From: Reclinomonas americana ATCC 50394
Taxonomy: Eukaryota
Reading direction: 5' to 3'
NCBI GenBank assembly: GCA_048213135.1
Contig: PS015187.1
Span: 1 to 64,000, forward strand
DNA: 64,000 nt
Shown: positions 9,101-55,903 of the stretch, piece by piece
Layout of the letters: each line of letters opens with the position of its first letter
How positions within the stretch are numbered: position 1 is the stretch's first letter
Program-made: the position numbers and the translations under genes
Notes under the pieces: model-generated
What the model was told of the DNA's origin: nothing
The model's input: only the letters and a program-made list of their open reading frames with translations
The model's database searches: none

Positions 9101-9635
9101 ACAGTGAGAGTGAGTGTGTGTGAGAGAGGGAAGAGGGAGAGAGGGAGGCGCAACGCGATCGAGTGGCGATGCGCTCATTCGGATTGACAACGTCGAGACA
9201 CGACAACAAGAAGAACAGGACGCAGTGAGAAAGCCATAGTGTCGTCCTCCTCTCTTTCTTCTGTCTCAGTGGCGGTGACGAAGGGAACACGCTTGCAGCT
9301 CACAGTCTCATAGAGTCTTCATTTTGTGTCGACGTTGCCGATGTACTCGCTCGCAGGAAGCTCTCCTGACGCGGCTCGATATGCATTCATATGCTGCATT
9401 GCATGTCCACCTATAGCAGAGCGACAAAGAACCTTCTACATCGTGCATTCTCTCGATACCCTCGACGTCGACGTCGACCACTTGTCAATGAGCTTCGCTG
9501 AACAACGACCAGCATTGCACTACGACACTGCGATTGTATGATGTCTGACGCGCAAGAAGTCTCCGGCGTGATGTGTTCTGGCGTGGCGCGTTGCACTGTC
9601 GTCCAACAGGACGAACCCTCTTTTCCCCTCCGTCC

Positions 9636-18335: not shown

Positions 18336-21300
18336 ATGAGGTGTGTTGCATGTTGCTCTCTCTCTCTCTCTGTGCGCGCGCGTGTGTGTGTGATGTTAAT
18401 TGCTTGTTGCCAGTCAACCAGAGAGGAAGAAGGCATGGGAGATGGGGAGGGATGGTGATGTGCAAGCGTTGCGCGAGTTGGTGGCTTGTGAGGGAGCAGA
18501 GATTCTGCTGAAGAGTGAGGAGACGAGTGGATTGCAGTCGGCATACTACTTTGCTGCTTTCAGTGGCCACATGCCTGTGCTGGAGTATTTGTGGGAGGAG
18601 AGTGGCGTCGGACCTCAACTTGCACAGATTGTCGGGGATGGCGGCTGTACGCCACTGCAAACAGCTGCTTGCAATGGACATCTGCCAGTGGTGGAATGGT
18701 TGCTTGCCGATGAGCGACGATGCCCGCCCGAGATTGCGCGTGTTGTCAACATCCACAAGTCCACTGCACTGCATTTGGCTGCCTTGAACGGCCGCGAAAT
18801 GATTGTGCGACTCCTCGCCACTCGCTATCCCGACCTTATTCCCATGGTCAACGATTTCGGCAAGACAGCGGCTCAGTGGGCTGGCGGGCATACCCCAGTA
18901 GGCGAGATATTCGATCGCCTTGCTCTATCGTTACCAGGTGTTTATCGTCATCGTCATGTGTTTTTTGCTGCCGTTGTTCATCTCTTCCTCCTCAGCTGAA
19001 ACTCGTGCTCCTCGTCAATTGAGGAAGAGGGCATTTGAGATGGCGCAAGGAGGCGACATGGAGGCGCTGCGCGAATTGGTGGCAATGGAGGGCTCGCAAG
19101 TGCTGCTGAAGAACGAGGAGATGGATGCCAATGGCAGCTCGGCATTCTATTTTGCCGCACGCAGTGGCCATCTCTCAGTGTTGGAGTATTTGTGGACGGA
19201 GAGTGGAGTTGGACCGCAACTCGCACAACAGGTATCCGTGTATGGTGTGACGCCACTGATGATAGCTGGCAGCTGTGGAAATCTGCAAGTGGTCGAGTGG
19301 TTGCTGGCTGACGAGCGTCGATGTTCGCTGGAAATGGTGCGGACGGTCGACAAGAACCAGTGGACTGTTCTGCATTATGCCGCTCGGAATTCCCGTGAAG
19401 CCATCGTGCAACTCCTCGCCACTCGCTATCCCGACATCATACCTGCAGTCAACAAGCATGGCAAGACAGCGGCACAGCTTGCACGCGACAACAAGAAACA
19501 GCGAGTGGCCGCGATGATTGATCGTCTGGCTGCGCAGTCGTTGCACCAACCACCAGCACAACCTGAACCATCACCACCGTCATCATCACCACCAGCACCA
19601 CCAACACAGCAGCAACAACAACTGCAACCACGACAAGATCCACCGCCGCGACCACCTGCAGGTGTGATCTCATTCGTCTTGAGCAGAAAGTTGATTCATC
19701 ACACACCTCAATCCGTGTTACTATTGCTTTTCGCCACTGTAGAGCACGCAGTGCCAGCTATTCGACAGGTGCGAGAATGTGTCATCGTTGGCGCGCGCGA
19801 CATTTGTGTGACTTCAACCCTCCCTTGTTTTTCCTAGCAGTCGGAAGATGATGCCTTCGTTGTGTATCGCCAGCTCGCCGACAAGGACGCACTCAACGTT
19901 CAACTCCAGCTCGACCTTGCCGCAGCACAGCAGGAGCGAGAGCATCAGCAGCTAATGTGGGGCCATGAGCGACGAGAGTGTGAAGCCATGGTGGCTCAAC
20001 TGCAACGGGCCATCATTGAGTGTCAACAAGGCAAAGCGGAAGAACAACTGAAGACTTACCAACTACAGCTAGCAAATGCAGAGTTGCTTCGAGGGAACTC
20101 CGAATTGCAGCGAGATCATGCTGAACTTCAGCACCAGGTTGCCCAACTGCAGCGGGATTCCTCGGAGTTGCAACAAGGCAGGGCTGAGGAACAGCAGATG
20201 ATAATTCAACTGCAGTCTCAGCTCTCTGCGTCCCTTCGCGGCAAGGATGTTCTCACCACGCAGTTGGCCACTATTCAGCAGCAACTTGAAGAGAGAGACC
20301 TTCTTGTTTCGCAGCTTCGGCAGGAACTTCTCCTCGCTCAAGGTCTTTACGTCTCTGTTGTTGCTTGCGTGCACATCAGTAGTTGACTCTCTTTTCACCG
20401 CTTATTCGGTAGTCAACACTTGCGTGCAGCGCTTTGAGTGGACCGAGATCGTGCACGCCACAGACTCGTTCTCTCCTCGTCTTAAGGTCGGCGAAGGTGG
20501 CCAGGGTGCTGTCTTCATTACTCTGCTTCGTGAGATGCATGTGGCCATCAAGGTACTCGACCCCGATGCACCGTGGACGATGGAGTCATTTGAGAGCGAG
20601 GTCTGTATCACTCCCTCTCCTGTTTCCTCTCTTTTTCTCCCCCTCCTTCTCCTCATTCCGTCTTACAGGTCGCCACCCTCGGACGCCTTCGTGATCGTCG
20701 CATTGTGCCTCTTGTCGGATACTCGGTGGGTGACGACAAGGCTCGCTGTCTGGTGTACAAGGCACTGCAGTGCGTTACTTATCTCCCTCTTCTTCTCCCT
20801 CTCATCCATCACCTCCTTACTGTGAAGGCACACAGAATTCCCAATCTGGAAGATATGTTGTTGCTTCGCACTGGCCGTGCACCACTCTCCGTCGTGCAGC
20901 GTGTGCAGATTGGTCTCGGACTGGCCGAGGCTGTGACATTTTTGCACAAGGTTAGATTTCTACATGGTTCGGCGGATTTTGTTCTCATGCACGTCCTCAC
21001 CACCTCTCTCACAGAACGAGGTGGTCCATCGCGACATCAAACCCTCGAACGTGCTTCTCGATCACCGTTTCGAGCCGTGTCTCGGTGACTTTGGCATCGC
21101 ACGGTCGATAGCTGATGGCAAGGTTTGCTTCTCTCCTGTCACATCTGCTTTCTCTCTGTGACGACTTCTCACTTCGACCCTGTGCAAGTCAACCGTCGCC
21201 GCCGGCACACTCGACTACTTGGATCCACTGGCCCTCCGCGCTCGGCGTCCGCTGCCCAAGCACGATGTCTTCAGTATGGGTGTGGTGCTGGTGCAGCTAG

Positions 21301-21554
21301 TCACCGGCAAGCCGGTGATGACGGTGGGCGAGTGGTCGCTGGAGTGGGACGACTCGCCTGCCTCATTGCGCGTCATGGAGCTGGTGGACAGCAGCGAAGG
21401 AGTGGAGTGGACTCCGCGTATCGCTGAAGCCATGTTCACCGTAGGCATACGATGCATGAGTCTGCGACGTGATCGGCCGACAGCGCAGGAGGTACTCGAC
21501 GTGATGCGGGCGTTGCGGGAGGCGTGCGGACAGTTTACGATGGTCATTGATTGA
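18336..21554 (+). CDS. Ankyrin module x2 - Pro/Gln linker - coiled coil - IRAK/Pelle(RLK)-like kinase
   Basis: Two homologous ankyrin blocks (GCTPLQTAACNGH...STALHLAALNGR; GVTPLMIAGSCGN...TVLHYAARNSR) and a Q/E/L-rich heptad region. Kinase: FEWTEIVHATDSFSPRLKVGEGGQGAVF, VAIK, HRDIKPSN, DFGIAR, GTLDYLDP, DVFSMG, RRDRPT. Start is 18336 (ATGAG|GTGTGT) or 18296. Confidence 0.85.
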
Positions 21555-22055
21555 ACTGGGAGGCAGAGACAGTGCGATTCAGTCTGCAAAAATCTTGCAC
21601 TGCCTGCACATCGAGCACCTCCTGTGCCATCTATTGACCGCGTTACAGACTTATGCAACGTCAAGCATGGCATCAGCGATACGTGAAACTGTCGTCGACC
21701 ATATATATATATGCGTGACGCACTTGATTTAAAGTTGGTTAGAAAGAAAGCACTCACAAACAAAACACTTCATTCACCACATTCCAATAATGCGACAAAC
21801 GACCACATGTACAAATCCCTTGCCGACAATCACCTTGGCACACCAACAATATAGAAACGCATAATTACATTCTCCTCAATGATTGCGATCGCGAAGTCGA
21901 CCTGTCTTCCCTTGCATTAGTTTTAATTCTCCCTCCTCTTTCTTCCCGATCAGCTGACGGATGCAACCAAGTATCTTCTATTCCGTCCTTCGCTCTCCCC
22001 GTCCTGTCCGTCTTGATCTTCTCCGGATCTCTCCGCCCCTTCCCCCTTCTCCTCC

Positions 22056-23141
22056 ATGATCCCCCACAAAACCATCCTCTCCGACTTCCTCGCGGTCCTC
22101 ACCCTCACCCTCACCCGCGACGGCCGCCACCTCATCACCGGCGGCCACGACCACATTGTCCGCGTGTGGACACTCACCGACAACGGAACTTCTGTGCGTG
22201 CAGAAGAAGAGCCACTCAAGCTGGAGGGCCACACCAGTGTCATCAAGTGCCTCGCCACCACACCCGACGGCATACGCGTCGTCTCCGGCAGTCAAGACTC
22301 GACAGTGCGCGTGTGGTCACTGGCCACTGGCGAGGCACTCTTGCCGCCCATGCAACACGCCCGCCTCACCTGTCTGGCAGTGTCGCCTTGCGGTGAGCAC
22401 GTGGCCACCGCCAGTCGGGACACCAGCATATGCGTGTGGTCGTTGCGCACGGGGCAATTGGAGCACGTGCTGAGCGGGCATCACGGACCGGTGACGTGCA
22501 TGGCGTACACGGCCGACGGAGAGCGCATCGTGGCGGGGGACTTTGCGGCGAAAATACGAGTGTGGTCGGCAGCACGTGGAGAACTGCTGCGGCACGATGA
22601 CGCTGGGCGCACGGGTATTCAGGCGCTGGTGATCACAGGCGACTACATTGTAACAGCGAGCATGGACCACGTGGTGCGCGTGTGGTCGCTGAGCAGTGGG
22701 GAGCTCGTGCGGGAGATGGCCGGCCATACGAGCTTCGTGACGTCACTGGCGGTGGTGCCGAGCGGGCGATTCGTGGTGAGCGGCAGTGATGATAGGGATC
22801 GGTCGGTGCGGGTGTGGGCGGTGGAGACGGGCGAGGAGGTGCTGGTGTTGAGGGGCGCGACGGCCAAGGTGAATGGTGTGGTGGTGTCGCCGTGCGGGGG
22901 GCGCATTGTGGCGTGTGATGGGCACGGGGAGGTGATTGTGTGGTCGACGGTGTGGGGGTTGGCGTGCGAGGAGCTGGCGGCGGCGCAAATGGCGGCCAAG
23001 GTGGTGAGGGAGGAGATGTGGAAGGAGGGGGAGGATGGGGTGAAGGGGGAGGAGCGGTGCTTGGCGGAGCAGGTGCTGCGGTGCTTTATGGTGGAGGAGG
23101 CGCAGGTGGTGGTGAGGAGGAGAAGGGAGGAGGGTTGGTGA
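22056..23141 (+). CDS. Intronless WD40-repeat (about 7-blade) protein
   Basis: Repeated GH...V..LA.TPDG.RVVSGS.D.TVRVW units in a single 361-aa ORF. Confidence 0.85.
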   Translation: MIPHKTILSDFLAVLTLTLTRDGRHLITGGHDHIVRVWTLTDNGTSVRAEEEPLKLEGHTSVIKCLATTPDGIRVVSGSQDSTVRVWSLATGEALLPPMQHARLTCLAVSPCGEHVATASRDTSICVWSLRTGQLEHVLSGHHGPVTCMAYTADGERIVAGDFAAKIRVWSAARGELLRHDDAGRTGIQALVITGDYIVTASMDHVVRVWSLSSGELVREMAGHTSFVTSLAVVPSGRFVVSGSDDRDRSVRVWAVETGEEVLVLRGATAKVNGVVVSPCGGRIVACDGHGEVIVWSTVWGLACEELAAAQMAAKVVREEMWKEGEDGVKGEERCLAEQVLRCFMVEEAQVVVRRRREEGW

Positions 23142-24502: not shown

Positions 24503-27500
24503 ATGGGCGCCACTCAAAGCACCACTCACCCCCTGTCCTCCCGCCCTCACCGCTCCCACTCCACACACAACGACCCTCGCCTGCACACTCCACACTCCTC
24601 CACATGGACCACACGCTCGCGAAGTCACACAACATCAGTGCCAAAGAGGAAGGAAAAGAAGGACAAGCCACACGATGCAGAGGACGCCGCGTTGCTGGTG
24701 TTGTTAGTCGGCGAAGTTCCGTTGTTTGAGGCACTGGAGGAGCCGACGTTGCGTAAGAGAGAGAGAGAATGCAATCAATGTGATGATTGCGTGTTCGATA
24801 TTTTCTTCTTATGATTTTTTGTTGTTTTTTTTTTGTTTGAAAAGGCGACCGGCGCCGGCTTCTGTGCCTGTGTGTGGTGGATGCGGCAAGTCGTTTGCTG
24901 TGTTTGTGCGAGGACGAGTTGCGGTCGATGTTTCTTCTTTCATTTCTCAGTTGATCTTCTTTTCTTGTACCTTTTGCCTCTGTCGTTGCTCTTCTCTCTC
25001 CCTCTGCGCCCACTGTTCCCTCCTTTCCCTCTCTTCATTGTCTTCTGTCTTCTTCTCCTCTCTCCTCCTCGCTCTCAATCTCTCCGCGCTCTCGCTCGCT
25101 GGCGTTCTTTCCCTCCTTGAACTTCCCTCCCCCTTCTCATTCCACTTCTTCTCTCTCTCTCAATCTCTGTGTGCTGTCTTCTGCATCTCTTCCTTCCTTC
25201 GCGCTTGTCTTCCCCCTTCTCTTTCCTCTTGTCTTCCACCTCTCCTCTTCGCGCCCACTCTCTCTTCCTCACTCTCATTCTCTCTTCCTCACTCTCTGTC
25301 TCTCTTCCTCGGTCTCGATCCTCCTCGCTCTTTCTGTCTCCTCTCTTCCTCCCTCCCTTAAGCTTCTCTTCTCCCCTTCTCCTTCTCTCCCCCTTTGCTC
25401 TTCCCCTTCTCTTCCCCTTCTCTTCCCCCTTCTCTCCCCCTTCTCTTCCCCCTGTCTCCCCCTTCCGTCTTCCCCCCTTCGTCTTTCCCCCTTCGTCTTC
25501 CCCCTTCCGTCTTCCCCCTTCCGTCTTCCCCCTTCCGTCTTCCCCCTTCCGTCTTCCCCTTCTCTTTCCCCANNNNNNNNNNNNNNNNNNNNNNNNNNNN
25601 NNNNNNNNNNNNNNNNNNNNNNNNNNNNNNNNNNNNNNNNNNNNNNNNNNNNNNNNNNNNNNNNNNNNNNNNNNNNNNNNNNNNNNNNNNNNNNNNNNNN
25701 NNNNNNNNNNNNNNNNNNNNNNNNNNNNNNNNNNNNNNNNNNNNNNNNNNNNNNNNNNNNNNNNNNNNNNNNNNNNNNNNNNNNNNNNNNNNNNNNNNNN
25801 NNNNNNNNNNNNNNNNNNNNNNNNNNNNNNNNNNNNNNNNNNNNNNNNNNNNNNNNNNNNNNNNNNNNNNNNNNNNNNNNNNNNNNNNNNNNNNNNNNNN
25901 NNNNNNNNNNNNNNNNNNNNNNNNNNNNNNNNNNNNNNNNNNNNNNNNNNNNNNNNNNNNNNNNNNNNNNNNNNNNNNNNNNNNNNNNNNNNNNNNNNNN
26001 NNNNNNNNNNNNNNNNNNNNNNNNNNNNNNNNNNNNNNNNNNNNNNNNNNNNNNNNNNNNNNNNNNNNNNNNNNNNNNNNNNNNNNNNNNNNNNNNNNNN
26101 NNNNNNNNNNNNNNNNNNNNNNNNNNNNNNNNNNNNNNNNNNNNNNNNNNNNNNNNNNNNNNNNNNNNNNNNNNNNNNNNNNNNNNNNNNNNNNNNNNNN
26201 NNNNNNNNNNNNNNNNNNNNNNNNNNNNNNNNNNNNNNNNNNNNNNNNNNNNNNNNNNNNNNNNNNNNNNNNNNNNNNNNNNNNNNNNNNNNNNNNNNNN
26301 NNNNNNNNNNNNNNNNNNNNNNNNNNNNNNNNNNNNNNNNNNNNNNNNNNNNNNNNNNNNNNNNNNNNNNNNNNNNNNNNNNNNNNNNNNNNNNNNNNNN
26401 NNNNNNNNNNNNNNNNNNNNNNNNNNNNNNNNNNNNNNNNNNNNNNNCCCCTTCTCCTCTCCCCCTTCTCTTTCCCCTTCTCCTTCCCCCTCTCACCTTC
26501 CCCCTCCCCCTGCAGCGCCACTGCAAACGCTGCGGCAACCCGGTCTGCTCCGACTGCTCCCGCCAACGACGCGTCATTTTCCGCATGCTCTCCGTCTACC
26601 GCGACGTGCCACAACGATTATGCGAGTCGTGCGGTGCGCACCTCTCTCTCCCCCTTCTCCAATCACTCTCCATTCCTTGACTGTTGGATCGTTGTAGCCG
26701 CCCTGTGCAAGCGCGACAACGAGTTCATCCAGTCGATGCACAGCGATCAGTACGGCATTCGCCTGCGAGTGGCGCTCTTTGATCACATTCTCCCCGCGCT
26801 TCATCGGCGACTGGAGCAGCTGGTGCCAGCGTTCCTGTCGGTCGTGCGGAGCGAGGGTTTCGAAGTGGCGGGTTTTTGCGGGAACGGCGGGTGGAGGTGG
26901 GTCTTCTATCAAGAGACTTCCCCTCTCCTTTCACTTTCACTTCCTCACTTGCCCCTTTCCCCCCAATCAAGGTACCGGCTGCCCACCTCCTCCTCCCGCC
27001 ACGAAATCTCCGTCCTCCCACGCTCCGCCAGATCTCTGGACCGTCGCACCGCTACCGCCCTCCACAATCTCTTCCACCCCGACCACCCGCGCGCCTCCGG
27101 CTGCGACATTTCTCTGGCGCGCAATCTCCTTCGTTTCGCGTGTTATTGGCTGCCGTCGCGCATTCAGGCGGCGGGTGCGCGCCCACCGGATGTGTTTGAG
27201 GTGGATGTGCAGGGGTCGGACGCGGTGGTGATGCTGGAGCGGAGTGCGGATGTCGTTGTGTGCTGGGAGAGGGGAGGGAGGGAGGGAGCGATAAAGAAAG
27301 AAAGGAGCAGAACGTGAGAGAAGAGCTCTTCTCTCATTCCTTCCTTCGCCGCAGCGCCGCGCGGTCGAGGAAATCTACGTGCTGCGCAACGAGACCGCCG
27401 GCCACACCCACGAATTCAGCATGACATACCAGGGCTTTCGACGGGTGATGGATGGACTGCTGCTGGCCGCCACTCTTTTCGACGAGGCGTGTGTCGTGGG

Positions 27501-30500
27501 CGTGCGCAGCTGTGCAGAGAGTTGCGTCTCGTGGAGAGAAGGCTGTGAGGGCCTTTCATTACCCCCTCTCGTATCTCTTTGCAACCTCTTTCTGTAGCTC
27601 TGATTCTCTTTCCCTCTCACGCCACCCTCTCCTTTTTCTCGCTCTTTCGCGCTCGCTTCACTCCTATCTTCCTTATTATCTGCATCTGCGTTGCAATTGT
27701 CTCGCTTCCCTGCCTCTTTCTCTCTTTTGTTTCCCGTCCTCTTTCTTGCAACTGCGTGTCCGTCTCTGCCCTCCCATCCCAGTCCCGCTTGTATGTCGAT
27801 TCACTTGCGCAGTGCAGCTCTCTCATTGTCATGCAAGATCGGCAGTTCTCTGCCTCTCGCTTGAACTCTCGTCTGCCCTCCATCTCATCGCGTCTTGTCT
27901 CATCCCCAGTGCATCTCCCTCCCACTCACTCCGCTACATCTCTTTGCCTTCTCCTGCCCTCACCCTTTTCCCTTCTCAGAACCCCTCGTCACCATCCTTC
28001 AAAACCTCGACTCGCACCTACAACACTTTGGCCAGCAGCAGAGCGTGCGCCTGCGCTCTGCCTTTGCCGTCACCTTCAGCACGCTCGTGCGTCAGTGTAC
28101 ACCATGGGCACCGCAGACATCATCAATACCGCCGCCATCCGTGGACCTCGCGCACCAATTCGACTCGTTCATCTCCTCCTCCACGCACGACGTCATGCTG
28201 CTGCTGGGATCCGCCGGCACCGGCAAGTCCTCCATCCTCGCCGCCCTCGCCATTCGCGCCTGCGAGGCGTGGCTGGAGAAGGCGCCCAACTCGCGCCTGC
28301 CCATTCACATCAACATTGCGGCGCTCACCGACCCGCGTCACGGCCTCTTGTTGGAGACACTGCAGATGGCGAATCCGGAATTCTGCGAGGCCGACCTGAC
28401 ATGGATGTGTCGCATCCCACTGCTGCTGTTGGTCGACGACTATCACCTGCTGCCGGAGGATGTGAATTTGTTTGCGTCAAACAAGGTGTGGTGCGCGTGG
28501 GAAAGGGTGTCTTTCTCGGGTCTCTCGCCACCATTCTGTTTCATCCTGCACTCACTCTCTCTTCCATGGCTCTGTTTCTTTCTTCGTCATATTGCGGGGT
28601 TTGGTGGCAAACTACGTGTGCTTGCTAGTGGTGCCCGTTTTTCTTCTTCTTCTTCTTGTACTCCTTTGACTACCACACTCTTCTTCTGTCCAGTTCCGCT
28701 CTCTCACACAGTTCCTCGTCGTGGGCGAGTGTGACACTCTTTCTCTTTCTTCTTCTTCTTCTTTCCTTCTTCTCCTCCTTCTCGTTCTTCTTCTCCTTAC
28801 TCTCTTTCCTTTTTCATGTCCTCCTCTTCCTCTCTCCTCCTCCTCATTATCCTCCTGCACCTCCCCTCGTCCTTCTTCTTTTTCTTGTTTCTCTTCTTCC
28901 TCTCCCTCTCTTCTTGTTCCTGACCTTGTACTTGTCGTTCCCCCTGTTCTCCTCTCCTTGGTGTTCTTCTTCTTCTTCTTCTTCTTCTTCTACTTCTTCT
29001 TCTTCTTCTTTTCGTTCTTCTTCTTCTTCTTCTTCTTCTTCTTCTTCTTCTTCTTCTTCTTCTCCTTCTCACTTTCCTTCTTCATGTCCTCCTCTCCCTC
29101 TCTCCTTTTCCTCCTTATCCTCATGCACCTCCTCCTCGCCCTCTTCTCCTCCCCCTCCTCCTTCTTCTTCAACTTCTTTCCTTCTTCTCTTCCTCCTCGT
29201 CGTCTTCTTCTCCTCCTCCTTCTTCTCCTTCTTCTTCCTCTCGCTCTCTCATTCACTCACTCTATCTAGTCATGCCATCTTTGCCACGCACTCGACCAAC
29301 CAATGCATCGTTTCTGCCACCCTCACTGTATCGCTCGCTGTCTTCCTCGTCTTCTTCTCCGTCTGGTCACTCATCTGCACTCAACGATCAATCATAACTC
29401 TTCTTTCCTTCAGCGTTATCTTCATTCCCACCTCTGCTTCTCTCGTGTCTGCCTCTTCCCTTCTGTTTCACAGTTATTCTCACGCATTCTTCTCCCTTTC
29501 CCTTATCTCCCCCTTCCCCTCCCCCCAGCTCTTCCGCTACGGCGACATCAAAATGCTGCTCACCCTCCGCCCCGAACGCCTCTCCCGCATGGGCGACACC
29601 CCCCTCCTGTATTTCGCACCCCCGGCCAGCGCCGACTCGCCCTTTCTGCGTTTCGACGCCGTGCACCAACTGCGACTCGGTCCACTGGACTCAGACAGCG
29701 CCTCGCTATCTACCCTGCGCGTCATGATGCAGTCGGCCGAATTTGCGACGCACGACCTGCGCCTCCTGTCGACTCGTTGCGAGGACCGCCTGCGCGCTGC
29801 CGACGCACCCATGCGTCAGCTGTGTCGCATTTCCGCGGTGTTGCTGGAGTGGTTGCGGAGGGTGGCGGCCGGGCAGGGTGCGACGCAGACGTGGCGCACA
29901 CTGGCCGAGTGGTGGATCGAGCAGGAGACGGCACGACTGGCGCGTCCCGCCACTCGGCATTATTTGCCGACGGCCGCACAATGCCTGCGCTTCTGTCGCC
30001 ACATGGCGCTGTGCATGCAGCGACATGCGCAGACCAGCACCCTCGTGCACGTCAGTGCCTCGGACGAGTTGCCGACGGAGATTGCCGAGCATTTGCAGAG
30101 TTTCCGTGGACCGCCAGCCGCGCACCTGGACGACGTGCAGCCGTTCTTCAGTGACACGGCGACTGCGCGCCTGCTGCGCCGGTGCACGCCCCTGGTGCAG
30201 CTGGTTGGCCCGAACACGTGGTCGTTTGTCGGTGCCGATTTGGCGGGCGTGTTGGCCTCACTGCCCGTCGAGCCGAATGACACGTTGGAGAGGTTACGCA
30301 AGAGGGACAGAAGAGTGAGAGAGGGTGATGTTATGAAGTGAGTTTTGATTGTCAGTCAGCGCAGGTTATTCATGGAGATGCGAGGAGCTGAGCTTGTCGG
30401 TGAGGATTGCTTCCGCATTCACTGATGTGGCTTTTCATTTCATCTTTATCACTCCTTCTCCGCCCTGTCCTTTTGTTCACGACTGTCGCAGTGAATCTGC

Positions 30501-33500
30501 AACCGGTGACGTCGGTCGGCGACGAACTGCAGCACGAGGAGGAGGAGGAGGAGGACGTCGATGCAGTACCCTCTTCGCAAGCCTCGCAGCAGGAGTTAAG
30601 TGGCGCCATGCGGAAAGCGGATCACTACATTGCAACCTCACTCATTCTCCATGATCGCAGGAGGCACGCCTTGTCTGTTCAGTTGCAGCGCGCCATGGGC
30701 ACCGTGGTCCTCGGTGTGGTGCGGCAGTTGCTCGAATTCTGCTGGCCGCGGTTCATTGCGGTGGTCGGTGTGGAGGAGCCTCCGTTCCGCATTGACAAGC
30801 TGTGGGCCGACAAGAGTGATCCGCAGTTCTTTAGGTGCGTTCTTACTCGCACAGGGGTTTGCATGAGGGTTCACATGGTCTATCTCTCTCCCTCGCTGTT
30901 ACGCTGCTTGTCTCGCTCGCCGTATCGCTCCCTGACTCTCTCCCTGTCGCACCCCCTCTCTCGCGTTCTGTCTCGTTCCCGGTCTCGCTGCCTGTCTCGC
31001 TTCCTGCCTCACTTCCTGTCTCGTTCCCTGTCTCGCTCCCTGTCTCGCTCCCTGTCTCGCTCCCTGTCTCGCTCTCTGTTTCGCTCCCCGTCTCGCTCTC
31101 GTTTCGCTCCCCGTCTCGCTCCCTTTCTCACTCTCCGTTTCGTTGCTTGTGTCGCTCCCTGTCTCACTCCTCGTTTCGATCCCTTTCTCGTTCCCCGTTC
31201 TGTCCTTGTCTCGCTGCCCGTTCTGTTCCTTGTCTCGCTCCCTGTCTCGTTCTCAGTCTCGTTTTCTGCTCACTTTCTGTCTCGCTCCCTGTCCTGCTCC
31301 CTGTCTCGTTTTCTTCTCACCTCTTGTCTCGCTCCTTGTCTCGCTCTCTGTCTCGCTCCTCGCCTCGATCCCTTTCTCGCTCCCTATCTCGCTCCCTGTC
31401 TCGTTTTCTCTGTTATGGTGTCTCTCTCGCTTGTTTCATTGTTCTCGTCAACACACCCGCTGTCTTTATATTCTTGACTCCCGCCCTTCCTACACTCCCC
31501 TTCCCGCCCCCTTTCCCACTCCTTCCCCCTCACCCTCCCCCTTCGCCTCCCTCCCCGCTCCCCCCCCCCCCCCCCCCCAACGGTACGAATGCGACCACGG
31601 CCGCGCTCGCATCGACTCCTACTTTCAGCGAGAACACGTGAGCAAGTTTGCGCACACTGGCGTCGCCGCGGAATTGGACCTCAGCACCATGTGCACTCTC
31701 CTCACGCGCCTCTGCTATCGACTGCCGAGTCAAGACGCACTGTCGCGACAGCGTAGCCTCGTGCACAACATGCTGGGGGCGTCGACCGTGCACAGTGCGG
31801 CACTGCTGGTGCGCGGCTCGGTCGACCGCAATCGCAACTGGGACGTTGCCGCCGACCACGATGACGCATCGCTGGCGTTGCTGTTGCCACGACCCGCGGT
31901 GGTGAGTGGCTTCGAGATCTGTCTCTTTGACGGCTTGTCGTTGACCTCTTTTTTTGCGCAGCGCGAGGCCGTGGACACCATTCGACTCGTTCGAAACGAG
32001 TCGCAGCACTTTCTCACGCAGTCCGGTGTCGACAAGACGGTGTTTGAGGCGTTGAGCGCCCGCTTGGAGACGCAAGTGCGAGTCATTCACGAGTACCTTG
32101 GTGGTGTGGCGAGTTGCAATTGGGTGGATGAGCTGCGCGAGGCCATGTCGGTGGTGGCAGGTGGGGTGGAAGGGAAAGGGAAGAGGGAGGTCGTGAGGGG
32201 AGAGGGGAGAGGGGAGAGTTGAGAAATGGGAGAGATTCACTCATTTCGCTTGCCCGTTAGCTTGCTGCATTCTTTTCACTTAGTGAGAGCTTTCTTAACG
32301 TCGCCATGTCACAACAGAGGCAGGGAATGTGGTGCGAGTGAAGAGAAGCCGCGAAGAGAATGCAGCGCATAAAGTACGACGACGAGAGAGAGGGAAAGAG
32401 GGGCCATGGAAGTTACATGAGAGAGGCGACGAGTACGTGAGAACGAAAGGCGAAACTTGACCTGATGAAGAGGCATGATCAAGATGCTAACTTTCCCCTC
32501 CCTTTTTCCCCTCCCTCCCTCACTCCCCCTTCGCCCCTCCCCCAGTGGGCCTGCGCAACGTCCGCTCCCTCACTGAACGCCTCCACTCTGCCTGCCGACT
32601 GCAAGCCGCCATGATGGACGAAGACGCGCAACTCTGCAAGCTCCTGTCCTCCTTTGTCAACCTCGACTGCACACCCACGGCTGGCGACTCTGAGCGGCGA
32701 CTGGACCTGCTCTCTGAGGTTTTGTACAAGATCGAGAAATCCCTTTCTCTCCTCTTTGTCAAATCCCCTCACCTGTTTGTGCAGATGAAAGCCTTCGTTT
32801 CACACCCATCCGCCCGCGTGCTGCTGGTGATGGGCGAGAGCGGCGCCGGCAAGTCGCTCAGTTTGACCGTGTTTGCGCGCCAGCTGCTGACAACGGGCAA
32901 TCCGCTCGGACATCGCTTCGTGCTGCGAGTCACACTGTCGTCGTTGCGCAACGCCCGCGAGACGCTGCTGTTGGAGACGCTGCAGCATGTCGACGAGTCA
33001 TTCACAGCGGCCGATGTGGAGGCCATGCACAACATTCCGCTGTTGCTGCTGCTCGACGGTTACGACGAGCTGTATTCGCGTGTCAACTTGTATGAGAGCA
33101 ACCAGGTGAGATGGGAGAAGGGGAATAGAGCAGAGAGACGACCGTTATTACAGAGCGCTGTGTCACTTTCTTCTGTGGCAGCACATTCTCTCGTCTCGTG
33201 CTGATGAAGTTGGCACGAAAGGCACAACTGTCTGCACCGTTTGCTCACTTCACTTCTGCCTCTCTCCTCTTCCTTCTTCACCTTCTTCCTTTTTAATGCG
33301 GTTGCTCACACTCCACCTTCTCCCTCTCTTCTCTTCGCCTTCTCCGCCTTCTCCCTCCTTCTCCGCCTTCTCCGCCTTCTCCGCCTTCTCCGCCTTCTCC
33401 GCCTTCTCCGCCTTCTCCGCCTTCTCCGCCTTCTCCGCCTTCTCCGCCTTCTCCGCCTTCTCCGCCTTCTCCGCCTTCTCCGCCTTCTCCGCCTTCTCCG

Positions 33501-36500
33501 CCTTTTCCATCCCTTCTCCCTCCCTTCTCCCTCTCTTCTCCCTCCCTTCTCTCTCTCTCTTCTCCCTCTCTCTTCTCCCCTTCCCCCTCCTTCTCCCTCT
33601 CTTCTCCCTCTCCTCTCCCCTTCTCCCTCTCTTCTCCCTCTCCTCTCCCCTTCTCCCTCCTTCTCCCTCCTTCTCCCTCGTTCTCCCTCCTTCTCCCTCC
33701 TTCTCCCCCTTTCTCCCCCTTTCTCCCCCTTCCCCTTACCCCTTCCCCCTCACTTCCCCCTCACTTCCCCCTCACTTCCCCCTCACTTCCCCCTCACTTC
33801 CTCCTCCCTGCAGCTCTTCCACTTCACCAACCTCAAACTCATCATCACCTGCCGCACGGACTACGCCGGCCTCCTGGCGACATCATCAACCGCCGCCGGC
33901 CACTCGCACCTCGCATGCTTCGCCCCCGTGCCCCACCTCGGTGGCAAGCCGCAGGAGCACCTGGTCGTGGAGCGCTTCGTGGCGCCCTTTTCACCGGCGC
34001 AGATTCATCGCTACCTGCTGCAGCGGCAGAATACTGCGAGAGACGATGGCGACAATGACGATGACGAGCAAGGGGGTGGAGGTGACAAGCGACAGAGCCG
34101 TCGCCGAAAGCGAATGACGGTGGAGGTGAGCTTGGAGAGGCAGCTGGAGGCGGTGCCGGGACTGGCCGCACTCGTCACCACACCGTTCCTCCTCGCCTCG
34201 GTGGTGGACGTACTGCCGCAGCTGGTCTCCACGCCATGGCACCTGCAGGATGATGCTTCTGCTGCTGTTGGGAATATTGACTTGCGACCGCCGATGCACA
34301 AGGCGCAAGTGTTGGACTTGATTGTGGGTCAGTGGATTGAACGTGAGCGACAGCGGCAGGCGAAACTCGCACACATTCATGTGCCGAGTACGCGCGCCTG
34401 CTTGGAGTACTGTGAGGCACTGGCCGGCCTGATGCATCGTCGTGGACTGGTGCGCCTGTCGCTGCAGGAGGCAGAAGAGGAAGACGTGGATCGTGAATTT
34501 CGCGTGTTCTTCCACCACGAGCGATGCGTGCCACTACTGCAGTGCTGTCCGGTGGTGCAGCGTGCGGGAGCGTCGTCGTGGTTCTTCTTGCATCCGTCGC
34601 TGCAGGAGTACTTTGTGGCGCGCCAGGTGTTTGCGCTGGCCTCGTGGCCCGGCGACGACGCCATGACGCACGACGCGATGCGTGCACACATTCTCAATGC
34701 GCGGCCGCTGGCCGAGCATCCGTCGCTGTTGCGCCTGATCGGTCCGGTGGTGCGCCAAGATGCGGGTGGCCCGCTGCAGCGTCGCCTGTGGGATATGGTA
34801 TACGGCAGTCGAGTACCGGCGGCGCGCCTGCACGTGGCCTCGGTCAATGCCGCCACGATTCTGTGCGCCGCGCAAGTCTCATTCTCCCGTCGCGATTTGT
34901 CGTTTGTGGATTTGGCCGGCGCCGACTTGCAAGACGCCATCATGCACCGAACAGTGTTGCGTGGGGCCGACTTGCGCGGTGCAAACTTGTTTAGTGCGTT
35001 CTGTCGGGAGGCCGTGATGGTGGAGTGTGCGCTGTCCAACTCGTGCTTGCCGCGCCTTCCCCTGGCCGGTCACGCCGCCGTCGTGTGCTCGGTGGCGGTG
35101 GCGCCCGACGGCCGCCGTATTGTCAGCGGCAGCCTCGACGGCACTGTGCGTGTGTGGAATGCGGTGACGGGTGAAGAGTTGCGGCAGGTGTACGGTCACG
35201 CCGGTGCCGTGCACGCCGTGGCGGTGTCGAGCAGCGGGCGGGCGTTGGTGACGGGCTGCGTGGACAAGCGTGTGCGTGTATTTGTGCTCGACACGGCCGC
35301 CATTGTGCGCGTGTGGCACGGCCACGAGGACCCCGTGTTTGCCGTGGCGGTGTCGGTGTGTGAAAAGTACGTGGCCAGCGCGAGTGCCGAGTTTTTCGGT
35401 GGCGAGGAGGCACCGCTGCGCGTGTGGGCCGTGATCACTGGCGAAATGTTGTTTGCGCTCGAGGGACACACCAGTGGCGTCACCTCCGTGGCCTTTGCGC
35501 CTGACAGCCGGCGCGTGGTGAGCGGCAGCTGGGACCGCAGTGTGCGCGTGTGGTCGGTGGAGAGCGGCTTGCAGTTGTTGCAGTACGACGTGCACTCCGA
35601 CTACGTCATGTCGGTGGTGGTGACGCCGGACGGGCGGCACGTGCTGTCGGCCAGCTCCGACACCACGGTGGCCGTGGTGGCGCTGGAGAGTGGGGCATTG
35701 GTGCGCCGCCTGCAGGGCCACACCAAACCAGTGACGGCGGTGGCGCTCTCGCCCGACGCGCGTCTCATTGTGACCGGCGGCGATGACCGCTCGGTGCGCG
35801 TGTGGTCCGCCGAGACCGGCGACCAGCTGTACGAGCTCGACAGTCAGGCGCAGCATGTGCGCTCCATTGGTATGACGCTCGATCAGCAGTACGTGGTGAC
35901 CGCCGGCGGCGACGACAACCTCATTCGGCTCACGGGTGTGTCGGCCGACAACAAGGCGCGTCGTCTGGAGGGTCACACCGCCGCCGTGGTGGCCATGACG
36001 ACGGCCGCCGACGGTCGCTACATTGTCAGTGGCACGGCCGACGACAAGGTGCATGTGTGGCTCGCCAGCACGTGCGAGGAGGTGCGACAGTGGCGAGTGC
36101 CGGCGCACGGTCTCACCTCACTCGCGGTGACGGCGGACGCACGCTACGTCATCACGGGTGGCGCCACCGACAAGTCGGTGCGCGTGTGGTCCGTGTGGAG
36201 TGCCGAGGAGGCGCGCAGCGCGGTGCGACGGCACAAAAAGGCGGTGACGGCGGTGGCCTGCTGCGCCGACGGCCACGTGGTGGTGTCGTGCGCCGCCGAT
36301 GAGTGCCGCCTGCTGGTGTGGCACCACTTGCTCGACGACGACTCTCACGCATTGCGTCCGATCAAGGTGCGCGTCGACGGCGAGCGCTTCCTGGCGGTGG
36401 CGGTGTCGGCGGATGGCGTGCGGGTGGCGGCCTCGTGCACCGACGGCCGCGTATACATTTTCATGGCCGAGACGGGCGAGCAGAGTCGCGCGCTGCTGGC

Positions 36501-37817
36501 CGGTGCCGGCGGTGATCTCGCATCGCCGTGCGTGTGCTTCTCGGTGGGCGGCGATCTGGTGGCGGCCGGCTGCCAGTCGAAGACCGAGGGGCACGTGGTG
36601 CGCGTGTGGCAGGTGCTGACCAAGGAGGAGACGCACTGCTTGCGTGGTGCGCTCGACGCGGTGCGCACTGTGGCCTTCCTTCCGCAGCAGCATCGGCGGG
36701 AGACGCCGGTGGTGGTGGCGGGTGGCGTGGATGGGATGGTGCGGGTGTGGGCGTGTGGGGAGGATGGTGGTGGGGAGGTGGTGGGGGAGCTTGGGGGGCA
36801 TACGGAGGTGGTGACGGCGGTGGCTGCTGGGGTAGGCGGGAAGGGGGTGCAGGTGGTGTCGGCCAGTGCGGATCGGTCGGTGAGGGTGTGGAGCGGGTGT
36901 GGGGAAAGGTTGGTGGATCCGAAGGGGAAGGCTGAAGGGGAAGGCTGAAGGGAAAGGGGTAGAGAGGGAAAGGGGCAGAGAGGGAAAGGGGCAGAGAGGG
37001 AAGCGGTGAAAAGGGAGGGATTGAAGGAGAAGGAAGAGGAGGAACGCAAAGAAGTCCAGCATGCTTATGAGAAGAACAGAAGTTGAAAGCGAGGTCAGAG
37101 AGAAACGAGACCGAATAGGAGAGCAGAGATTCGTTGACTGTGGGGAGCAGAGATGACAGAGTATCAGTGTTTCGAGAGTGCCATGTTGGAAGCGTTAAGG
37201 TCCACATGGGAATAGGAGCAGTGGACTCGAAAGGAGAAGTGCCATGTGCTGCTGATGGTGGAGGGCTTAGAATGTTGGTTGGATGTCTGTCAAGCTGTGG
37301 GCGGTAGCACATCAAGGGATGGAATGCAGAACGAAGACTGGGTCTGCAAGTGAACGATGTTGTGATACTGACGGCAGTGTTGCAAAGCATTGAAAGAGAT
37401 CGAGAGCTGAGGGAAATTGAGTGACGACTGAGATGTGAGTGGTTGGAGAGAAGTGAGCGGCGATGGACATGAGAGTGACGTTGAAGGGATTGTTGAGAGA
37501 TACAACTTGGGTTGGCAGAGATGAGAGTGGGTAAGATGGAAGAGGGATAGTACGATGAAGACATGATTGACTTGGTGGAAGTGTTTCGATGGCACAGTTG
37601 GAGAGGTGTGTGCCTGAATGCGTCCTGGTTCTCAATCCTTGCTTCCCCCTTTGCGCGCAGTCCCTCGCCACCCGTTCTGTGGCAAGTCATCGGCACCTTC
37701 AACGCCGACTTTCGCGGCTGCAACACGAGTGATTCCACCGGCAAGGACACGGTGGCGTCGGCGAATGTGCGTGCGCTGGCCGGAATGTCAGGCATGTGGA
37801 GGCCGGTGGTGACGTGA
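24503..37817 (+). CDS. NLR-like STAND protein: FYVE-like zinc finger - unknown region - NACHT (degenerate) - NACHT - pentapeptide repeats - WD40 repeats
   Basis: Start MGATQS. FYVE-like: CGGCGKSF..FVRGR|RHCKRCGNPVCSDC...RLCESC. Walker A/B pairs: GSAGTGKS / LLLVDDYH and GESGAGKS / LLLLDGYDE. Winged-helix motif WFFLHPSLQEYFVA. Pentapeptides: DLSFVDLAGADLQDA...GADLRGANL. About 14 WD40 units. Terminal exon 37661-37817 is phase-compatible. Two internal junctions (near 30300 and 31580) are ambiguous. Confidence 0.75.
28965..29060. repeat. (TTC)n microsatellite in an intron
   Basis: Visible directly in the sequence. Confidence 0.95.
30950..31400. repeat. Degenerate 12-bp tandem repeat (CTCGCTCCCTGT)n in an intron
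   Basis: Visible directly in the sequence. Confidence 0.85.
33335..33505. repeat. 9-bp tandem repeat (CTTCTCCGC)n in an intron
   Basis: About 16 perfect units. They produce the artefactual LLRLLR / EKAEKA ORF text. Confidence 0.95.
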
Positions 37818-46695: not shown

Positions 46696-47229
46696 AGAAA
46701 GAGTGAGCTGTCCATTGACCCTTCGACGTCGAGGACCGAAGTGAGAGAGTGTTTACACAACGAACGGAAGAGTGACCGACACTCACCCGTTCGTATGAAG
46801 CGACGACGTGCAGCAGTGCGAACGAAGGGCAAGAAGGGAAAGAGAGGAGTGAAGAATTAAATGTGGAACAGGAAGAGGACGTGGAGGACGAAGCACAAGA
46901 AGACGAGCAGCAGCCGCAACGCAAACGCAGAAAGGTTGCAGAGCTCGGATGCGTGGCGACTGTCGTGGATGGTGAGCGGAGATGAAGACAGAGAGAGAGA
47001 GGAAGTGACATCTTCTGCCTTTTCCATCTTCCAGTGTCTCGCTCTCACTCTTTTCTCTCGCTCGCATGCTCTTATCTTTCTCTTTCGCGCGCGCGTGTGT
47101 GTGTGTGTGTGTTCCTCCTTCTCTGTCTCTTTGTTCAGTCACTCTGGTCTCTCGCTCGCATGCGTTCTCTCTTGTGTGTGTGCCTCCTTCTCTGTCTCAC
47201 TTTCCTCCTATGTCTCCTTGTGTGCAAGC

Positions 47230-50200
47230 ATGAGTGAGAGATGTCCTCTTCTCCTATCCAGTTGTGTGACTGATTGCTGCTCGCTGTGACAGCTGCAGCT
47301 GCCATTGATGCCGCTGTTCGACTCATGCCTCCAGATCCTCCTCCAGCAGCAGGTGTGCCATCATCTCGTTGGGATTTCTCCCGCTGTTTGTGTCTCCTGA
47401 CGATGATGATGGTGCCTCCTGAGAAAGAGGTGTTTGATGACTTTACACCACGGCCAGCATTCATGATTCACAGCTGGTTAGGCGACGACATGATCACTGA
47501 TGCCGACTATGTCGCTCGTTTCGTCTGGTCATCTGTGCTCTCACTGCTGGATGTTGGACTCCTCGCATTCATTCGTCACATGCAGTGCGCGTGAGACGTC
47601 GACAAAATGTGAGTGTTCCACATCTGTCGGTCGATGGAAATGTCACTCTGCGTGCGGCTGGGGTTGTGCACGATCCAGATCCCTTCCCGACGGATGGCCA
47701 GTGGCTTATCGACGAGTGCGACTTACTCAAGCCATACGCACGGTTGTTTGGAGAAAAGTGCGTTCCGTTTGCCCACCAATGCCTCTCTTCTTCCACGAAA
47801 CCAAGCGCACACTCTCATGCTGTCTTTCATCTGTTGGTGTTTGTTTCTCTCGCTCTCTTTCTGCTCAGTCGCAGTCTTTTCGCAGATTGTGGCCCTTCCT
47901 TAAACTTTTTTCTCCTGTGCATTCTGCGTTCTCTTTGTGCGCTTTCAGCCTTCCACCCTTGCTCGAGTTGTACTTCTTCCTGCAACGTACGCGCCGTTTA
48001 TGCTCTTCAGACTGATTGAATACTCTTGAGAGACTCTTTCACTTCCTGACATTGCGCACACGCACTCAATGTGTTTTCACAAACCTGGAGTCGTTGGGCT
48101 TCCTCTCTCTCTCTCTCTCTTCCTCTTTCATGCTGCGGAGACACTCGCTTGCGCTTGTTTCATCTACAAGCTGCAAGGCGTTCGCTCCAGTTCGTTCTCT
48201 CTTCGTAGATGCCCTTTCCCCTGTGCCTCTGTTTCTCACCTTTCATTCTGTGACATGCAGTGATGGGAAAGAGATCCCCGACGAGCAACAGCGTCGGTAC
48301 GTCAGCGAGTGAGTCTATGTCACTCGCAAGAATTCCCTGACTCAACCCATTCAGCGTGCAAGTTGGTGATGTATGCAAGGAACCCCCGCCACCAGAACCT
48401 CGCGACAAGGGAATATGGCCTCTGACTGGCGTCCTTTCGCTTGCCAGCTTGCACAAATGGTGTCCGACGGGCTTGATGCAGCATATTTCACGTTCGGCTG
48501 AGATCAGCTCCGAGGCCATGTTGCAGCTCATGTCGCTTGGTGCAATCGGGCAGTTGGTGCACAACTCGGTGTGTTTCGTATTGCTGTATTCACGTTGTGG
48601 TCAGTGATGATGTTGATCTTAATCAGTCTCTTTGTACAGTGTCGTGGTGATGTTATGATGACGAGCAACACAGACGCCGCTGCTTTCCCGATCACGCGAA
48701 CCCGCCCCAAGCCGGATATCGAAATAGTTTTCAAGTGCTATTACCCTGTGTTGATTGGCGAGCTGAAGCAAGAGAATGCATCAACTGCGAGCAGTGAGAT
48801 TGATATGTTCATTCTGCTGCTGCAAATGGCGTACAGCCTGTGGTGGCGGGTCTGTGAACTTGACGACGAGGAGTTGACGCAACATCGTGTTTACGGGTGG
48901 CACCAGACTGGAACCAACGTCATCTTGATACAGATGAGAGCCACGGTGGACAGTGTCCGTGGCAAGGTCCGTACACATCAATTACTGTATGCTGAGCCGT
49001 TGAGTGTTGACCTCTCCTTGTGCATTGCAGTCGAGATTTCTGTTTCGGTACCAAAACGTTTATCGCCGCGACAAGCGTTGCACACTGGTTCCATTTCTGG
49101 AGTGGTCGATTGTGCGCACCGTGCTTTTGTCATTGTTCGAGATCACCAGACAGTGCGTGGAGTTGGAGGATGAGCGACCATTACCCGGTTTGACCACGCT
49201 GGTGTTCAAGTTGTCGAAGGTGAGCAGTGATTCTTATCACACCTTTCACCTGTTCTCCTGATTGATCTGTTGGCCAGCCACGTGCGAGCGGTGAATCCTC
49301 AGATGCCGGACCACATGTCGAGGTGGACGACGCTGGTGGTGGTGGTGGTGGTGCTGGAATGAGGATGCGCAAGACGGTCAACTGCGACTTTACCAGTGCG
49401 CGCCTTGTCAATGGCCTACCCGTGGAGCTGGCTGTCCTCCTGGTTTGTTGGAGATTTTGATGCATCTCCCTCGCGTGTAACTCACCGATGCTTTGTCTCT
49501 TCTCATGCCAGCTACGACTGCCGCACACGGTTCCGCTGTTGCAATACTGGATTGATCCAGACCGTGACAAGTACGGATACATCATGCCTCGACTTCATCC
49601 GTGTGAGCCGCAGTCTGTCGAGGAGGCACTCGCAGCCACACGTGACGTGTGTGTGGCGCTCGCCGCGCTGCACGGAGCCGGATTCGTGCACTGCGATGTG
49701 AAGCCGTCGAATGTGATGAAGGACGAGACTGGGAACGCCGTGCTGATTGACTTTGATCACGCGCGTGTAGTGGAGGGCGGTGGTGGAACGCGGCAGCAGC
49801 AGCAGCACATGAGCGCGCACAGTACTGGGACTGTGGGGTATCAGGTGTGCATTGCACGAAAAGCAAATAGCACAACACTGCACACTTGTCTGACATCGAG
49901 TGCGGCACACACAGGCACCAGAGATTGTGGAGAGTGGCCGTGGTGACGAGCGAGTGGACACGTGGGGCCTTGGTGTCACTCTCGGTGCATGGGTCGCACG
50001 TGTGGCTCCCAGTGGGTGCTCGGCGATGTTGAAGTGGCAGCACGGCATTGACGAACATTTGTGTTGCACTGACGACAGCAGCAGCAGCAGCTGTAGCAGG
50101 TGGGAGGCGGCAGTTGGTTGCCTTGTGGGTGACATTCGCAGTTGCTTCGGCAAGAGTTGTGCGAGTGCTGTGAGATTGTTGGAGACGATGCTGGTGGTGG

Positions 50201-50253
50201 CGGCTTCGCAGCGGAAGATGTGCGCTCAGTTGCTGGAGGGTGGTTTGTTGTAG
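47230..50253 (+). CDS. PD-(D/E)XK nuclease-fold + protein kinase fusion (Crinkler/CR-effector-like); apparently intact copy
   Basis: About 10 exons splice in frame. Nuclease-like: RPKPDIEIVFKCYYPVLIGELK...LLQMAYSL...RVYGWHQTG. Kinase: LHGAGFVHCDVKPSNVM, LIDFD, GTVGYQ|APE, VDTWGLG. Stop TAG at 50253. Confidence 0.75.

Positions 50254-55872: not shown

Positions 55873-55903
<31 letters not shown>

Follow-up and report, generated by a model that had tools for sequence, protein, structure and literature searches.

Does the DNA between positions 24503 and 37817 of a 64,000-nucleotide stretch from Reclinomonas americana ATCC 50394 (contig PS015187.1 of assembly GCA_048213135.1; hereafter the window) encode a single NLR-like receptor of the STAND class, and what would such a protein do? 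NLR-type sensors are known in animals, plants, fungi and bacteria, and little is known of them in other eukaryotes. An original prediction, made from the letters of the window, placed here an NLR-like receptor with a lipid-targeting module and FYVE-like finger at its N-terminus, followed by two NACHT domains, pentapeptide repeats and WD40 repeats. Pfam scores and PDB matches agree with the STAND assignment, with that domain order and with the finger at the front. A further element emerges between these parts, namely a putative helical domain, termed X here, that precedes each NACHT domain and carries a motif of HEPN ribonucleases (RNases). As one possible reading, held with slightly more doubt than confidence, the region encodes one NLR-like STAND protein of approximately 2,330 residues that joins a membrane module, a duplicated HEPN-type X-NACHT block and a repeat sensor.

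Gene model and coding potential

The domain region lies on the + strand at 24503-37817 and is eukaryotic and intron-rich. A 14-exon model that uses only GT-AG introns yields 6,990 nt, or 2,329 codons and one terminal stop. The junctions of this model were picked for frame retention among all frame-keeping GT/AG pairs enumerated, and the model is therefore a statement of feasibility and not a transcript. The 13 junctions can all be closed with in-phase GT-AG sites, which bears out the earlier claim that they are mostly phase-compatible. Eleven are unproblematic, three of these with the unusual donor GTTGCG (24748, 24918 and 27521, the last being the sole in-phase option without a stop), and two are awkward: the junctions between exons 8 and 9 and between exons 9 and 10.

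A codon-usage log-odds measure was trained on exons 12-13 and applied to the other exons as held-out sequence. For exons 4-11 the proposed frame scores +0.43 to +0.75 per codon, with exons 4-6 at +0.43 to +0.64, and the two other frames are negative; exons 1-3 give weak or ambiguous values (+0.21, -0.44 and +0.05 per codon). The G+C content of the exons is 55-65%; the introns are GA-rich at the 5' end and CT-rich at the 3' end, where complexity is low toward the acceptor, and are strongly strand-asymmetric. Several introns of the gene are microsatellite-like, for example at 33330-33500.

It is very improbable that the region is a pseudogene in decay, or in part a product of misassembly, and yields no protein of this kind. 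Seven runs of N, of lengths 401-993, occur in the 64-kb window, and one of them (875 N at 25573-26447) lies within intron 2 (24918-26515), amid CT-rich, low-complexity repeats; the awkward junctions at 30325 and 30835/31641 point the same way. Against this, approximately 7 kb of exons are free of in-frame stops, the held-out exons show a strong frame-specific codon signal, and in the second NACHT module the Walker A, Walker B and sensor-1 motifs are preserved. Of the two awkward junctions, the one between exons 9 and 10 tells against the model in that the best donor, GTGCGT at 30835 (phase 2), is in phase only with the third AG (31641) past the pyrimidine tract. This pairing is favoured because the homologous intron in block A has phase 2 as well. 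Pairing donor 30835 with the first AG (31627) was rejected, a stop following after three codons.

Two NACHT modules, one intact and one degenerate

A Walker A motif has the form GxxxxGK[ST], and a Walker B motif the form hhhhD followed by an acidic pair. The second module, NACHT B, spans 32546-34881 on the + strand; exon 12 (32546-33105) encodes it together with the 5' portion of exon 13, which opens at 33814. Exon 12 scores 29.0 bits against Pfam NACHT, above the cut-off of 26.7, and the motifs of the module are intact: Walker A is GESGAGKS (32833-32856), Walker B is LLLLLDGYDE (33040-33069), and a sensor-1 (33838-33864) and a winged helix with its His (34579-34614) follow. The first module, NACHT A, is encoded by exons 7-8 (27980-28485 and 29529-30324; 27980-30324 overall, + strand) and has the Walker A motif GSAGTGKS at 28207-28230. 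Exon 7 alone, which holds a partial domain, scores 19.6 bits against Pfam NACHT, below the same cut-off, and 24.7 bits against AAA_16; the spliced module reaches up to 46.6 bits against fetched NACHT proteins in a local phmmer search. Its sensor-1, TLRPE at 29553-29576, keeps the Arg. Its Walker B at 28420-28446, LLLLVDDYH, is degenerate and has lost the acidic pair (DDYH, against DGYDE in NACHT B), and its winged-helix stretch at 30216-30242 has Gly where NACHT B has His.

The two modules are evidently copies of one another. Exons 7 and 12 share 37% identity (E 2e-19), their 3' ends fall at the same intron position, and the C-terminal arms of the modules also align (E 1e-6). NACHT A finds its best match in NACHT B, at 75.2 bits, the top database protein reaching 46.6, whereas NACHT B is closer to database NACHTs (108.9 bits) than to NACHT A (75.2); block A is thus the diverged copy. 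Block A, besides lacking the Walker B acidic pair and the winged-helix His, has no sensor repeats of its own.

The duplicated X domains

Each NACHT module is preceded by a putatively helical domain. X domain A is encoded by exons 4-6 (26698-26896, 26972-27257 and 27355-27520; 26698-27520 overall, + strand), and X domain B by exons 9-11 (30492-30834, 31643 (or 31629)-31901 and 31962-32160, + strand), where an acidic linker comes before it. The two are collinear paralogues, approximately 25% identical outside a block around the residues RNE, and their similarity concentrates in two places. The first alignment block reads C-D-I-S-...-L-L-...-C-Y-x-L-P-S (E 0.006), with CDISL...LL at 27102-27131 in domain A and LDLST...LL at 31674-31703 in domain B. 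The second reads R-x-A-V-x-x-I-x-x-x-R-N-E (E 0.013) and is aligned by MAFFT and Smith-Waterman as well. The local alignment of A with B has a z of 3.1 (22 of 2000 shuffles reach its score) and the semi-global alignment a z of 4.7 (0 of 1000); BLASTP of exon 6 against exon 11 returned no alignment. Both domains share an intron just 5' of the R-x-A-V ... RNE block, and the acceptors that open blocks A and B are both phase 1.

As the X domains, the NACHT modules and the arms all align, the gene carries an X domain-NACHT unit twice. Its predicted layout is thus FYVE, two X-NACHT units in succession, pentapeptide repeats and WD40 repeats.

An effector domain was suspected earlier in the stretches encoded at 26700-27500 and 30490-32150. 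These are indeed paralogous, and both hold an Rx4-6H motif of the HEPN type: RNETAGH (Rx5H) at 27385-27405 in X domain A and RNESQH (Rx4H) at 31992-32009 in X domain B. HEPN RNases carry an Rx4-6H motif, typically with Asn after the Arg, according to PMC3710099 and PMC9646362, and both X domains show this pattern, the Asn included. The block containing RNE is also the best conserved part between the two. The HEPN fold is an up-down bundle of four helices in which the motif closes helix 3; PMC3710099 places it at a helix end, with the last core helix following.

For structural and language-model comparisons the segment 31629-32160 was analysed as a contiguous translation, which contains exons 10-11 and 20 intron-derived residues from a 60-nt in-frame intron. 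Among the named clusters shown by a protein language-model Atlas, the look-alikes of this segment were Csm6 HEPN (0.90), Cas_Csm6_HEPN (0.90), a HEPN_Apea cluster (0.84, the name applying to 33% of members), RNase LS (0.81) and Cas13a (0.80). The named families among those shown were only of HEPN type, save one domain of unknown function (DUF) on 11% of the members of a cluster. This agreement carries some weight because HEPN had been raised from the motif beforehand, with the proviso that both may key on the motif. Exon 11 alone gave a single Pfam row, DUF3644, at E 0.15; DUF3644 overlaps a HEPN family according to Table 1 of PMC3710099.

Several results weigh against a HEPN assignment. The Atlas values, a recognition of 1851 (mark 2300) and 140 shared features (mark 170), make the look-alikes a lead that chance could produce, and exon 10 alone gave no usable match there. 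No HEPN family was found by hmmscan at E ≤ 10 in Pfam, NCBIfam or PADLOC with the exon pieces and the read-through of exons 10-11, and the NCBIfam and PADLOC rows for X domain B were at chance level only; X domain A matched no family in any of the three libraries. The DZIP3/hRUL138-like family PF18738 gave no row at E ≤ 10 on exons 5, 6, 10 and 11 or on the read-through 31584-32150, in all of which the domain was either split or interrupted by the 20 intron-derived residues. A PDB sequence search with the protein of X domain B returned 0 matches, and a profile of the two X rows returned 2 at chance level (E 0.45 and 1.3), neither of them HEPN. The AlphaFold model of 31629-32160, made from the single sequence of the exons 10-11 read-through, has a predicted local distance difference test (pLDDT) score of 36 and is unusable; its low-confidence helices put the motif at the end of one helix with further helices after it, an arrangement compatible with the HEPN fold that carries no weight. 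A word search with X domain B gave no match at E ≤ 10 among 4,226 candidates, and the N-terminal regions found nothing in a local phmmer search of 92 fetched proteins.

These null results are the substance of a competing explanation that we regard as doubtful, in which the X domains are not RNases but helical domains of some other fold, specific to the lineage and serving as adaptors or acting on membranes, as on fungal NLRs, with RN-x-H structural or coincidental. It is in keeping with the lack of a HEPN profile match in three libraries, with the absence of a PDB sequence match or database relative, and with Atlas values under the tool's own confidence marks; moreover, the motif is shared by descent between two copies and so counts as one observation. 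It accommodates less readily that conservation peaks in the RNE block between copies otherwise 25% identical, that the spacing of the motif, its Asn and its putative position at a helix end are as described for HEPN, and that the Atlas named HEPN-type families, save one DUF, after HEPN had been raised from the motif. On balance the X domains rather probably belong to the HEPN superfamily, and the assignment is best treated as a lead that rests on the motif, the language-model look-alikes and the order of helices.

One gene or two

Whether blocks A and B form one protein depends on the junction between exons 8 and 9. A candidate intron of 167 nt (30325-30491, + strand; donor GTGATG at 30325, acceptor AG at 30490-30491, phase 1) would fuse block A to block B in phase, and no other in-phase pairing here retains coding sequence. 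The acceptor is strong, and the coding signal of block B is strong right from 30491. This acceptor is phase 1, like the one that opens block A, as expected after duplication of an intron-bounded block or after a deletion that fused two tandem copies; in both cases block B would be left without a promoter of its own.

The donor side counts against the fusion. GTGATG is a modest donor, weaker than two neighbouring ones, and a better, out-of-phase donor with the consensus GTGAGT is available 13 bases downstream at 30338. This consensus donor was rejected as a coding junction, since the shifted frame that it opens scores negatively for codon usage and meets a stop near 30652. Codon log-odds are below zero over the final 60 nt of exon 8, and the frame of unspliced exon 8 stops at TGA 30339-30341.

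These features can also be read as the boundary between two adjacent, paired genes, of which the first (FYVE, X and the degenerate NACHT) would end at TGA 30339-30341 and encode a membrane-bound helper, and the second (X, NACHT, pentapeptide and WD40) would encode the sensor and start at ATG 30372, with a 28-nt first exon (30372-30399) spliced to 30492, or at an internal Met. The exon 8 stop, the fading of the exon 8 codon signal before 30325 and the in-phase pairing of ATG 30372 and donor GTGAGG 30400 with acceptor 30491 all suit this arrangement and count against a fusion, GTGAGG being a better donor than GTGATG. A break near 30300 had been flagged in the original prediction, and adjacent NLR-like gene pairs are known in plants (PMC12258605, introduction). 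The spacing is hard to reconcile with two genes: the stop of A and ATG 30372, the closest possible start of B, are just 30 nt apart, too little to accommodate a terminator and a promoter, and the other visible head-to-tail gap, from the end of the upstream WD40 open reading frame (ORF) at 23141 to ATG 24503, is approximately 1.36 kb. ATG 30372 has a less favourable Kozak context than ATG 24503, and 30325-30491 is GA-rich and then CT-rich like the other introns of the gene. One fused gene and protein is fairly probable on this evidence; a two-gene pair is unlikely while keeping appreciable weight, and a small share of probability falls to other outcomes. Judged by its intact motifs and codon signal, block B has clearly been kept under selection since an old duplication.

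The N-terminal module

Exon 1 (24503-24747, + strand) begins with an ATG and, read directly, encodes the M-G-x-x-x-S start that had been reported, here MGATQS, followed by a Ser/Thr/His/Pro-rich stretch and the polybasic sequence KRKEKKDK at 24644-24667. It ends at donor GTTGCG 24748, for which the only in-phase acceptor is at 24843. Because in-frame ATGs occur upstream in the same open frame, at 24293 and 24383, an N-terminal glycine is not assured.

The finger is split over two exons. Exon 2 (24845-24917, + strand; donor GTTGCG 24918) encodes the first half, with CxxC, GKSF and RGR (CxxC ... RGR at 24873-24917), and exon 3 (26516-26633, + strand) the second half, from RHCKRCG to RLCESC. Exon 3 by itself reaches 28.3 bits for Pfam FYVE (cut-off 27.8; E 1.9e-6), and in a PDB sequence search with it all 6 matches at E ≤ 1 are FYVE domains (best E 6.3e-4); the 26-residue piece from exon 2 alone has no Pfam match. 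Together the halves supply the eight Cys of a FYVE finger in four CxxC pairs: CGGC, CKRC, CSDC and CESC. FYVE domains that bind phosphatidylinositol 3-phosphate (PI3P) carry the signatures WxxD, R(R/K)HHCR and RVC. None is present in this form, a point that argues against PI3P recognition: no W..D precedes the first Cys, the basic motif is RGRRHCK, and the finger ends in RLC. The basic motif RGRRHC and the lack of a visible WxxD had been read correctly beforehand. The finger thus likely has a FYVE-family fold, with PI3P binding not assured, and the module as a whole resembles a membrane address composed of a putative myristoylation-type start, a polybasic patch and a FYVE fold.

Pentapeptide and WD40 repeats

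Downstream of NACHT B, exon 13 encodes a short stretch of beta-helix type, approximately 11 units of pentapeptide repeats at 34882-35049 (+ strand; 44.4 bits against Pfam Pentapeptide, cut-off 20.2) and then WD40 repeats at 35062-36891 (+ strand; 278.8 bits against Pfam WD40, in 11 stretches). Counted by eye the WD40 repeats number 14, which would suffice to build two propellers of seven blades each. The 3' end of exon 13 falls at one of the donors in 36858-36909. Exon 14 (37661-37817, + strand) opens at an acceptor at 37659 with a pyrimidine tract, its frame 0 being favoured by codon log-odds (+0.27 against -0.09), and encodes a C-terminal tail of approximately 51 residues that matches no Pfam family and ends at TGA 37815-37817.

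Proposed mechanism and significance

HEPN RNases such as Cas13, Csm6 and RNase L/Ire1 need pairing for activity. In the scheme proposed here, the WD40 and pentapeptide part would bind a trigger, upon which the intact NACHT B would exchange nucleotide and drive oligomerisation, while NACHT A, probably hydrolysis-poor, would act as a built-in partner. The X domains would be metal-independent RNases of HEPN type that become active once two Rx4-6H motifs meet, either A with B within the chain or between chains, and the resulting RNA cleavage would arrest or kill the cell. The N-terminal module, through a possible myristate, the polybasic patch and the FYVE variant, would hold the protein on an endomembrane.

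A more specific version is distinctly unlikely and is offered as speculation. Two HEPN halves would sit in one chain, each on its own NACHT switch; a WD40 ligand would drive B against A to build a composite active site, a Cas13-like arrangement reached by an independent route; and the myristoyl/FYVE head would place this site at the endosome or phagosome, which would confine RNA cleavage to sites where an engulfed microbe or virus escapes.

The gene joins a sensor core of bacterial style to a membrane-address module and duplicates the block of effector and switch. Provided that its product is a single protein and that the X domains are indeed RNases, it would be a natural case of spatially restricted NLR signalling, and would hold a degenerate 'helper' NACHT in the sensor's own chain, where plants use gene pairs. 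If this is true, the introns would be a dated trace of an old bacterial-type immune module in a eukaryote.

Neighbouring genes in the window

Lineage-specific signalling genes are densely packed in the window, which contains no housekeeping gene; an Rfam scan of it gave no match. Immediately upstream, at 18400-23141 (+ strand), lies an apparent multi-domain signalling gene. It comprises two paralogous ankyrin-repeat ORFs (18400-18996 and 18902-19834, + strand; Ank_2 at 58 and 70 bits), protein-kinase-like exons 3' of these at approximately 20200-21551 (+ strand), and a WD40 ORF at 22017-23138 (+ strand; 164.6 bits) that is 28-38% identical to the WD40 part of the gene at 24503-37817. By the ORF listing, 46800-56900 (+ strand) contains approximately three tandem copies of a kinase-like gene with a period of roughly 3.9 kb, among which near-identical ORFs recur, for example 48502-49170, 52389-52943 and 56069-56689, or 49461-49943 and 53388-53762. 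At 9549-10300 and 12896-13742 (+ strand) there are a TPR_10/TPR_12 ORF (44 bits) and a kinase-like exon followed by a RING-like Cys-rich ORF, and LRR-like ORFs lie near 61400-62350.

Relatives of the NACHT-repeat core

The arm of NACHT B (33817-34830), run in a full HMMER scan against 1.84 billion representatives, gave 87 proteins at E ≤ 1e-3. The best relative is 30% identical (66 bits), and the best relatives as a group are 29-33% identical. Neither this protein nor a close relative was found among the representatives, which weighs against the proposal in that nothing in it is confirmed by conservation. When the repeat parts of the gene were used as local queries, WD40 repeats were found in 50 of the 87 relatives, pentapeptide repeats in 24 and the order NACHT-pentapeptide-WD40 in 21. 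A word search with exon 13 among relatives of 1,827-5,000 residues gave 5 matches, all to the pentapeptide part only.

One relative with the full order (P0007) comes from a metagenome-assembled genome (MAG) of Gammaproteobacteria and lies beside three paralogues; others are metagenomic 'WD40 repeat proteins'. The four NACHT-pentapeptide-WD40 paralogues of a Gammaproteobacteria MAG (L001-L004, 1176075-1221034) are 47-49% identical to one another and lie within approximately 45 kb of a single chromosome. The N-termini of 15 of the 87 relatives, chosen for their length, were compared with Pfam, the best 25 rows being considered for each protein. Among the matches listed, 10 of the 15 have an ARM_5 domain before the NACHT, a single one has a kinase, and neither FYVE nor HEPN appears. 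ARM_5 is a recurrent N-terminal module, its carriers including P0085, P0008, P0037, P0070, P0043, P0049, P0051 and the WD40-rich P0013 and P0065.

Comparison with known systems

The NACHT-pentapeptide-WD40 core is an already known and mostly bacterial layout. The effectors of bacterial NACHT (bNACHT) proteins include HEPN RNases, their sensors include beta-propellers and pentapeptide repeats, and the NACHTs of eukaryotes are stated to have arisen repeatedly from bacterial ones equipped with repeat sensors of this kind (Kibby et al., bioRxiv 10.1101/2022.07.19.500537). The present gene has the same domain order as bNACHT proteins of the type effector-NACHT-pentapeptide-WD40; unlike them it is eukaryotic, has 13 introns, carries the effector-NACHT block twice and FYVE in front, and is at most 30-33% identical. 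It has the look of an old form of the bacterial design that introns have invaded and that has undergone internal duplication.

HEPN domains joined to NACHT or other STAND ATPases are known in animals, Capsaspora and bacteria, according to PMC3710099, PMC9646362 and bioRxiv 10.1101/2022.07.19.500537. The closest parallel among these is the DZIP3/hRUL138-like group of HEPN-NACHT proteins of animals and Capsaspora, including those of the pearl oyster genome, which have been proposed to be immune RNases (PMC3710099, PMC9646362). They share with the present gene an N-terminal domain with Rx4-6H, Asn after the Arg, directly before the NACHT, and some end in WD40 or TPR repeats. Unlike the present gene, they have one block and neither FYVE nor pentapeptide repeats, and their PF18738 was not detected on the pieces of this gene.

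The original prediction did not recognise FYVE with tandem NACHT as a described architecture, which holds for the full combination and less so for its parts. A survey of Sordariales NLRs reports 23 treble-clef zinc fingers on NLRs, two of them FYVE (PMC12258605). Those fungal NLRs also have NACHT and WD40 in common with the present gene; their zinc fingers are mostly C-terminal (52 of 57), and the text of the survey makes no mention of HEPN and describes no tandem NACHT. Two NACHT modules (677-1014 and 1070-1408, by local phmmer) do occur in 1 of the 87 relatives, KAG0271483.1 of Linnemannia exigua (P0085), a predicted protein with an ARM_5 N-terminus and no FYVE, pentapeptide or WD40, in which Pfam reports one NACHT. 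The core layout itself recurs, as noted, in 21 of the 87. A tandem-NACHT architecture was not found in the literature searched, the retrieved work apparently dealing with NACHT-NACHT contacts between chains, and a FYVE head with two effector-NACHT blocks and a bacterial-type sensor core is likewise not described in the literature searched. Each part is therefore known, and the combination in a 13-intron gene is new as far as that literature goes.

In the way it might work, the predicted protein can be set beside Cas13, Csm6 and RNase L/Ire1. It differs from all of these in having no sequence membership in their families, no guide RNA and no second-messenger sensor; what it would share is the availability of two Rx4-6H motifs in one chain, as in Cas13.

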